A stretch of DNA of 64,000 nt from Escherichia coli (GCF_024298765.1 NZ_CP101210.1), one strand, 5' to 3'; positions 24,328-24,645 are shown, numbered from the stretch's first letter. A program made the numbers and translations. Notes: a model not told the origin generated them from the sequence alone.

Positions 24328-24645
24328 AATTCCCCTCTCTTTTGCAATAAACGTGTTTTCTCTGGTGGGTTGATTACCCAGTCTTTTTTACTGTGTCTGA
24401 CATTTTGTACTGTGGTGCAGTTGTAATGCAAACCTTCCGGGCTTCTGGGACACAGCATTTCAGTCCGGGCCCCATCATTACCATTTTGTTGATTCGAAAC
24501 GAAAACCCTCACCAATATCGATCGATTTTACCGATCGATATGATCACATCGATCGGTTGTAACCATTTTACCCTGTCTTTTGCATGGTTTTAAAATAGGC
24601 AACCCTCTTTGTCGGGTAGGGCAAGAACCAACGGAGATGATTGAA

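Follow-up and report, generated by a model that had tools for sequence, protein, structure and literature searches.

Organization of the locus

We analysed a 64,000-nucleotide stretch of Escherichia coli DNA (GCF_024298765.1 NZ_CP101210.1), hereafter the window, and focused on a palindrome, a putative operator, located 5' of a gene for a beta-barrel outer-membrane protein (OMP). The gene (24646-25383, + strand) encodes 245 amino acids with a match to Pfam OMP_b-brl (E = 2e-20), and its product is 66 to 70% identical to proteins named Tia in RefSeq. Members of the Hra family (Tia, Hek/Hra1, Hra2, and Hes) are 65 to 90% identical among themselves (PMC5539235), so the window OMP belongs to this family of adhesins, invasins, and autoagglutinins and is, judged from its sequence, an Hra-family adhesin gene product. 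Proteins of the Hra family confer adhesion and autoaggregation (PMC5539235, PMC8286834). The window represents an E. coli chromosomal island and shows 100% identity to the chromosome of ECJXMCRH7 (NZ_CP067342). A plasmid origin, suggested by the CTX-M and insertion sequence (IS) content, was rejected given this chromosomal identity and matches to only 5 plasmid records.

The preliminary description of this DNA reported a perfect inverted repeat upstream of the OMP gene, ATATCGATCG-ATTTTAC-CGATCGATAT. Sequence inspection found the repeat exactly as quoted, but at 24515-24541 instead of 24525-24551; the latter span, 10 bp off, in fact reads ATTTTACCGATCGATATGATCACATCG. A third copy of ATCGATCG was also present as described, although at 24548-24555 rather than 24550-24557, and the palindrome ends 105 bp before the ATG (24646), not the ~95 bp first given. 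Overlapping this repeat is a second perfect 10-bp inverted repeat that had been missed, ACCGATCGAT-ATGATCAC-ATCGATCGGT with an N8 spacer (24530-24557), which can alternatively be read as 14-nt arms, 13/14 complementary, with zero spacer. The arms are built of self-complementary units (CGATCG, ATCGAT), and thus inverted and direct repeats are equivalent here.

We estimated chance levels from 200 dinucleotide shuffles of the window. Perfect inverted repeats with arms of at least 10 and spacers of 0 to 12 occurred at a mean of 0.87 per shuffle, compared with ~14 loci in the real window, so a perfect repeat is by itself unremarkable for real DNA. Three copies of CGATCG within 40 bp were seen in 0/200 shuffles.

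Four GATC (Dam) sites are packed into 35 bp (24520-24554) directly 5' of the -35 hexamer, the densest cluster among the 197 GATCs of the window. The 43-bp region spanned by the two repeats carries all four, and there is no other GATC within 24000-25000. The promoter-like site itself, TTTACC-18 nt-TAAAAT (24567-24596, + strand; -35 at 24567 and -10 at 24591), is imperfect, with hexamer matches of 4/6 and 5/6 and an 18-bp spacer, and it is kept in all paralogues, including L009. We took the transcription start site (TSS) as 7 nt past the -10 hexamer, at an inferred position of ~24603. Relative to this predicted TSS, GATC1 (24520-24523) lies at ~-83 and forms the left edge of a block kept in all alleles, and GATC2 (24533-24536) lies at ~-70, 13 bp from GATC1. 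GATC3 (24542-24545, ~-61) falls inside a 9-bp insertion, ATGATCACA (24540-24548, placement ambiguous), which is unique to 4-GATC alleles such as that of the window and distinguishes them from the 3-GATC alleles, which are commoner; with GATC3, a GATC is maintained at +22 from GATC1. GATC4 (24551-24554, ~-52) is the promoter-proximal GATC, found at -52 (-50 in L009) in every allele examined. The insertion shifts the distal OxyR-type half-site described below through roughly one turn of the helix but leaves the proximal GATC at -52.

A GATC-rich regulatory region before an adhesin gene is reminiscent of the pap-type switch governed by Lrp and Dam, a likeness extended by a T-rich run after GATC1 and by one family copy located beside a pap operon (L006). 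The pap signature, however, is a pair of GATC boxes separated by 102 bp together with a PapI-like gene (PMC2909390). There is no second GATC box 102 bp away at this locus, where the 35-bp cluster holds the sole GATCs in 24000-25000, and no papI-like gene occurs in any context examined. With both defining features missing, we rejected a pap-type switch as extremely improbable.

Against the OxyR dimer consensus ATAGnTnnnAnCTAT, as quoted in PMC2909390, two 15-mers of the region score 8/10, a level reached by 54 of the 127,972 15-mers in the window. The distal half-site, ATCGATTTTACCGAT (24521-24535, centred at ~-75), departs from the consensus at two positions, precisely those that give rise, with the G and C on either side, to a pair of GATCs 13 bp apart. 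Its reverse complement, ATCGGTAAAATCGAT, is a 13/15 match to site A of the P22 gtr operator. The proximal half-site, ATCGGTTGTAACCAT (24552-24566, centred at ~-44), abuts the -35 hexamer, and the distal-to-proximal spacing is 31 bp in the window allele. In 3-GATC alleles, the distal site is instead 22 bp from a GATC-initiated 15-mer abutting -35. The distal T-N11-A dyad is centred at -66 in 3-GATC alleles and at -75 in the window allele, as counted from the predicted TSS, and the proximal 15-mer adjoins the -35 hexamer in every allele, which fits the LysR-type promoter architecture of a dyad near -65 plus a site at -35. A possible partner half-site 22 bp 5' of the main one (24499-24513) was discarded, as it scored 2/10 by hand count, below our threshold of 6/10, and lies in a region that is not conserved.

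Match to known Dam/OxyR operators

The window core, ATCGATCG-ATTTTAC-CGATCGAT, was compared with the cores of five known operators: K-12 agn43 (ATCGATCG-TTTATAT-CGATCGAT), Mu mom (ATCGATCG-GTAATAC-AGATCGAT), SfMu mom (ATCGATCG-GTAATAT-AGATCGAT), P22 gtr site A (ATTGATCG-GTAACAA-CGATCAAT), and P22 gtr site C (ATTGATCG-CTTGTAT-CGATCAAA). When each operator was slid along the entire 64-kb window on both strands, the palindrome locus was the top position for all five, with matches of 32/41 for SfMu mom, 30/41 for Mu mom, 29/42 for agn43, 17/21 for gtr A, and 16/21 for gtr C. The background for 41- to 42-mers was ~10.5 +/- 2.8 matches. The two mom operators, reverse-complemented, match window 24517-24557 with three coinciding GATCs, and when the region was searched by blastn against 50,697 phage records, the best match was the SfMu mom control region. 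Measured against the OxyR consensus, agn43, gtr A, and gtr C share the window's score of 8/10 with GATC-creating mismatches, and Mu mom scores 7/10. The putative regulator can be named as OxyR with reasonable confidence, given how closely the locus resembles the operators of agn43, Mu mom, and P22 gtr.

Other candidate positions in the window were rejected. The runner-up positions in the slide, ~1600 (no GATC) and ~13472 (a single GATC), lack a GATC cluster and represent AT-rich chance similarity. The only other GATC-N9-GATC, at 27278 inside blaCTX-M, scores 5/10 against the OxyR consensus.

The operator of agn43 (flu, antigen 43) is identical to that of the window in its arms, its 7-bp spacer, and the 13-bp spacing of its GATC-II/III pair; it also has a further GATC in the adjoining half-site, and its product is likewise an autoaggregating surface adhesin. 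The two differ in that the third agn43 GATC is 19 bp from the pair, as opposed to 9 bp here (18 bp for the fourth GATC), and in that the agn43 product is an autotransporter, whereas the window gene encodes an 8-strand-type beta-barrel. Their placement differs as well: the three agn43 GATCs start at about the annotated IsrC 5' end, while the window block is 5' of -35. In agn43, the GATCs are located just downstream of the TSS, and OxyR acts there purely as a repressor.

The mom operators provide the best overall match (30-32/41), with three coinciding GATCs and a GATC2/3 pair 13 bp apart, as GATC1/2 are here. Bolker and Kahmann, writing in 1989, reportedly assigned all three mom GATCs to the OxyR footprint. 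We estimated the Mu mom GATCs to lie at ~-87, -69, and -56 using the Pmom oligo (PMC4461284), compared with -83 to -52 at the window locus, which places both clusters in the same zone upstream of a weak promoter, in opposite orientations. Transcription of mom additionally depends on C, an activator encoded by the phage, and mom has not been established as phase-variable (PMC2909390).

Like the window operator, those of Salmonella/P22 gtr and opvAB are located 5' of the promoter and contain four GATCs, and in gtr the GATC pairs (1/2 and 3/4) are 13 bp apart inside 8/10 half-sites. In opvAB, OBSC has its centre at -75 and OBSD, which adjoins -35, has its centre 32 bp further on at -43 (PMC4856963); the window half-sites are centred at ~-75 and ~-44. 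Half-site spacing is thus 31 bp in the window allele, and 22 bp in 3-GATC alleles, against 32 bp in gtr and opvAB. The latter systems also have three (gtr) or four (opvAB) half-sites spread over 80-130 bp, giving two alternative OxyR positions, whereas the Hra locus has two clear half-sites packed into ~50 bp, and an alternative-occupancy mechanism is not evident there. The genes served also differ, as gtr and opvAB modify lipopolysaccharide (LPS) and the window gene encodes an adhesin. In this last respect the locus resembles the std fimbrial (HdfR/Dam) and pap-family (Lrp/Dam) systems, which exert Dam-dependent bistable control of adhesins through a methylation-sensitive regulator 5' of the promoter; their regulators and site sequences are different from those considered here.

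A related arrangement was observed outside E. coli. In Yersinia similis (L022, NZ_CGBP01000034), the stretch AACGATCAATAGTATATTATCGATCGTTATATTCTATCAATAAG occurs ~165-185 bp 5' of the ATG of an OMP 39% identical to that of the window. It matches the K-12 agn43 OxyR/Dam operator in 39/46 columns and contains two GATCs 18 bp apart, with the third position reading CTATC (the OxyR consensus) and not CGATC. Judged by sequence, it may mean that an OxyR-type operator became linked to this OMP superfamily independently.

Conservation of the putative operator block

We built an alignment of the DNA upstream of 13 family members in E. coli genomes, whose proteins are 60-99% identical to the window OMP. 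Their contexts are unrelated: they are found beside dnd genes, papG, leoCBA, yebF, atoS, terB, and integrase remnants. One invariant block emerged from the alignment, GATCGATTTT[A/G][C/T]CGATCGAT, followed by [T/A]CGATC and then by the promoter. Paralogues with 60-70% identity at the protein level, located in at least 5 unrelated contexts, retain the block, GATCGATTTTRYCGATCGAT...WCGATC; in L009, it is exact while the rest of the upstream region is unalignable. Every aligned allele has GATCs at offsets 0, +13, and +22, to which the 4-GATC class adds one at +31. The conserved unit is the 15-mer ATCGATTTTRYCGAT with a G and a C at either side, which generates two GATCs 13 bp apart, whereas the outer ATAT bases of the originally described repeat vary.

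The preliminary proposal of an operator for a dimeric regulator was broadly borne out, as the 15-mer has dyad symmetry of the T-N11-A form, typical of the site bound by one dimer within a LysR-type tetramer, and the canonical place 5' of a promoter. The 10-bp arms did not hold up as the conserved unit, given that the outer bases vary among alleles and all GATCs are kept. The proposal had also overlooked the Dam sites within the arms, which turn a simple operator into a predicted heritable, methylation-dependent ON/OFF switch.

The block is widespread. A 96-bp query comprising the block and promoter matches 1662 of 5426 complete E. coli genomes; a single genome can contain as many as four copies, and alignments of this query to diverged alleles begin exactly at the first GATC (24520). 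We also scanned metagenome contigs (L028-L127) with the promoter sequence only, in order to avoid selection on the motif. Among the promoter matches with enough downstream DNA, 92/95 precede an Hra-type open reading frame, and of the 98 contigs that reach far enough upstream (20 haplotypes), 95 have lost none of the GATCs of their class. Across haplotypes, polymorphism affects 1/28 columns inside GATCs versus 27/96 elsewhere (p = 0.003); within the 3-GATC class, it affects 3/26 columns of the block versus 16/36 of the flanks (p = 0.005). Conserved GATCs and promoter amid variable surroundings are also found in the validated opvAB and gtr switches (PMC12902445), so the Hra block shows the same pattern as these. 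The strong non-chance evidence for the block is comparative and does not come from within-window statistics.

Few exceptions were found. GATC2 is replaced by TATC in two metagenome contigs, i.e. towards the CTAT of the OxyR consensus. In another contig the allele has just two GATCs (catGATCgattttatcGATCgatttttctctt) and is 9 bp shorter than those of the 3-GATC class; the sequences read as if operator length varied in 9-bp steps (2, 3, and 4 GATCs) via gain or loss of a GATCNNNNN unit. GATC1 has become GATT in L025, a paralogue whose start codon is also altered. In the atoS-adjacent lineage to which it belongs (L010, L025), ATA replaces the family's ATG start, and there is an in-frame ATG 9 nt upstream. 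The changes in these two copies may reflect relaxed selection on a decaying gene.

The conservation data bear directly on whether the element is an ordinary redox-responsive OxyR site, with incidental GATCs and no heritable switching. Two 8/10 half-sites at activator-type positions would be expected of such a site, and four GATCs in 40 bp are statistically unexceptional alone. On the other hand, the deviations from consensus are exactly those that create GATCs, and they are fixed across diverged alleles (the 1/28 versus 27/96 comparison above); drift towards the consensus (GATC to TATC) occurs in just 2/98 contigs; and the extra GATCs at +22 and +31 are conserved despite occupying weak consensus positions. 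We consider a plain OxyR site improbable.

No regulator gene is common to the different genomic contexts compared, and whatever protein binds here must consequently be a core-genome product, like OxyR and Dam. This finding is relevant to the explanation closest to the preliminary description, in which the operator serves another dyad-recognizing regulator, either a different LysR-type protein or an unrelated dimer, and is methylation-sensitive or not. A T-N11-A dyad at ~-65/-75 plus a site near -35 is generic LysR-type architecture, and the proximal half-site is a poor OxyR fit in 3-GATC alleles. HdfR is a specific candidate, being a known methylation-sensitive LysR-type factor (PMC6735912) that controls the Dam-dependent std switch in Salmonella. 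The match, however, is specific to OxyR/Dam operators (SfMu mom at 32/41, the agn43 arms and spacer length, and gtr A at 13/15), no dedicated regulator gene travels with the module, and an unrelated dimer would leave unexplained why the GATCs and not the outer arm bases are conserved. We regard a regulator other than OxyR as unlikely, yet deserving of serious consideration.

The block might also be conserved for a non-regulatory reason, such as a recombination or mobile-element junction, a SeqA-binding GATC cluster, or an RNA-level hairpin. Homology between allele classes breaks beside the block (24566 and 24520), integrase remnants lie upstream in several contexts, and the region folds as a hairpin (-17.5 kcal/mol, z = -3). 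Against a junction, L009 and the atoS-adjacent copies keep the block without any integrase remnant. Against an RNA feature or terminator, the element is 5' of the predicted TSS, the hairpin has no T-tract and is not called by a terminator scan, and there is no Rfam match at E <= 1. Moreover, the block is held in fixed register with the -35 hexamer in all alleles, as expected of a transcription-factor site. A non-regulatory role consequently appears quite improbable to us.

Some observations concern the history of the operator. L005 encodes an OMP 99% identical to that of the window and yet has a 3-GATC operator, while in the tia-type genes L002 and L003 (69-70% identity) the operator is the 4-GATC one of the window. 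The breakpoints in homology coincide with the borders of the block (window 24566 and 24520). This mosaicism of operators and coding sequences suggests recombinational shuffling of regulatory cassettes. In L013 (NZ_CP028320), IS600 has replaced the whole operator, the promoter, and the first codons, a natural promoter knockout of a family member. A cross-species search with protein alignment yielded 7 loci only, and family members that have this promoter occur almost exclusively in E. coli. The GATC cluster is absent upstream of distant homologues in Wohlfahrtiimonas, Desulfovibrionaceae, and a deltaproteobacterial metagenome-assembled genome.

A putative Dam/OxyR switch controlling an adhesin

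Our preferred reading, to which we assign a probability of roughly 60%, is that the palindrome forms the core of an operator sensitive to Dam methylation, through which a LysR-type regulator (most likely OxyR) controls the promoter of an Hra-family adhesin. By analogy with the agn43, gtr, opvAB, and mom systems, this operator probably gives phase-variable adhesin expression. Adhesion and autoaggregation are the same kind of surface trait as that under Dam/OxyR control in agn43. In the proposed mechanism, OxyR would bind only when the GATCs are unmethylated and, once bound, would block Dam, while Dam methylation would in turn block OxyR binding. After replication, either OxyR or Dam would prevail, resulting in two heritable states and hence in ON/OFF adhesin production within a clonal population.

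The polarity of the predicted switch can be approached from the same precedents. We slightly favour the OxyR-bound, unmethylated state as ON, because the half-sites occupy activator-type positions (~-75/-66 and -44, as in gtr and opvAB) and the promoter is imperfect. It is possible that the OxyR-bound state is instead OFF, because Mu mom is repressed from the same upstream zone. We infer that the 9-bp indels, which produce 2-, 3-, and 4-GATC alleles and half-site spacings of 22 versus 31 bp, tune the switch.

Several points weigh against a Dam/OxyR switch at this locus. The support for it consists of sequence and comparison only, and no report of phase variation of Hra1, Hek, Tia, or Hes was found in the searchable literature. 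The consensus for OxyR is a loose one, with ~27 sites per 64 kb at 8/10, and in the majority 3-GATC alleles the 15-mer abutting -35 reaches only 4-6/10. Four GATCs within 40 bp were reached in 16/200 shuffles (8%), which is not significant alone, and the conservation tests are not fully independent, as haplotypes share descent and recombine. The TSS is predicted, which makes all minus-numbered positions approximate. There are also departures from the model systems: the orientation is inverted relative to mom, the spacing between the single GATC and the pair is 9 bp in 3-GATC alleles as opposed to 18-19 bp, and the half-sites are 31 bp apart in the window allele versus 32 bp in gtr and opvAB.

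We can extend the proposal from this locus to the whole E. coli Hra family, i.e. Tia, Hek/Hra1, Hra2, Hes, and unnamed paralogues, found in ~30% of complete genomes with up to four copies each. All of these might be under a compact Dam/OxyR switch that has gone unrecognized, in which allele steps of 9 bp (one helical turn) would reset the half-site spacing between 22 and ~32 bp and so set the switching bias or the redox dependence. This generalization is tentative, and we hold it to be possible but rather doubtful in its full form.

Relation to previous work

Reviews up to 2026 give only agn43, gtr, opvAB, and Mu mom as Dam/OxyR-controlled. We combined the names of the Hra family with Dam, OxyR, or phase variation and found nothing relevant in searchable full text, a scope that leaves out most subscription journals; a search of the same kind for the motif strings found no paper. 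One apparent link between Hek and Dam (PMC4921776) was discarded, since 'HEK' there refers to HEK-293 cells. The main texts of methylome papers on ST131 and O111 (PMC4659465, PMC6602927) do not list these sites. Functional studies of the Hra family have mostly used inducible promoters (PMC5539235). The Hra-family operator is therefore presented as a candidate addition to the known Dam/OxyR switches, with no earlier description found in the searchable literature.

If the prediction is correct, epigenetic phase variation would also govern a second major class of surface proteins in E. coli. The members of this class are virulence markers: tia in enterotoxigenic E. coli, hek in neonatal-meningitis and uropathogenic strains, hra1 and hra2 in enteroaggregative E. 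coli (EAEC), and hes in Shiga toxin-producing E. coli negative for the locus of enterocyte effacement. The phenotypes of mutants in these proteins would then depend on the colony picked, as is documented for agn43 (PMC3764049). An EAEC 042 derivative, LV2, shows heritable ON/OFF autoaggregation, which its authors attributed to an unidentified phase-variable factor with antigen 43 as one candidate (PMC5863034). Other Hra-family copies with this operator could be further candidates for the LV2 phenotype, though this is speculation. The 2-, 3-, and 4-GATC alleles also constitute a natural experiment on how the spacing of OxyR half-sites relates to switch behaviour.

Neighbouring genes and additional features

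The divergent neighbour of the OMP gene is an intact gene for an H-NS paralogue of 157 amino acids (23854-24327, - strand), which adjoins the OMP gene in no other allele. In L002-L004 its counterpart is a truncated pseudogene with a frameshift, according to the annotation, and other contexts lack it, which places it outside the conserved module.

Directly 3' of the OMP gene is a resistance insertion (window ~26045-30440; L027 14246-18641) containing a truncated IS903-type (IS5 family) transposase, blaCTX-M-14, an IS10-like ISVsa5 copy, and ISEcp1. The insertion parts the OMP gene from a WYL/helix-turn-helix regulator gene, a hypothetical gene, and a cobalamin-adenosyltransferase-like gene, which follow it directly in L001, L004, and L005. 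No terminator-like site was found 3' of the OMP gene in the window, where the IS/CTX-M DNA follows.

In many contexts (L003, L006, L010-L013, L025, and L026), a phosphoethanolamine transferase gene is located 150-185 bp 3' of the Hra-family gene. Such a gene is also present at L027 23088-24761, beyond the CTX-M/IS insertion and three more genes. If the transferase shared the putative switch, the trait affected would be an LPS modification, as with gtr or opvAB. In L011, a hairpin with a 10-bp stem and a weak T-tail lies between the Hra-family gene and the transferase gene.

Upstream of the operator, at 24384-24414, the window contains a direct repeat, TTTTTTACTGTG / TTTTGTACTGTG, with 19-bp spacing, in a part of the intergenic region specific to window-type alleles.

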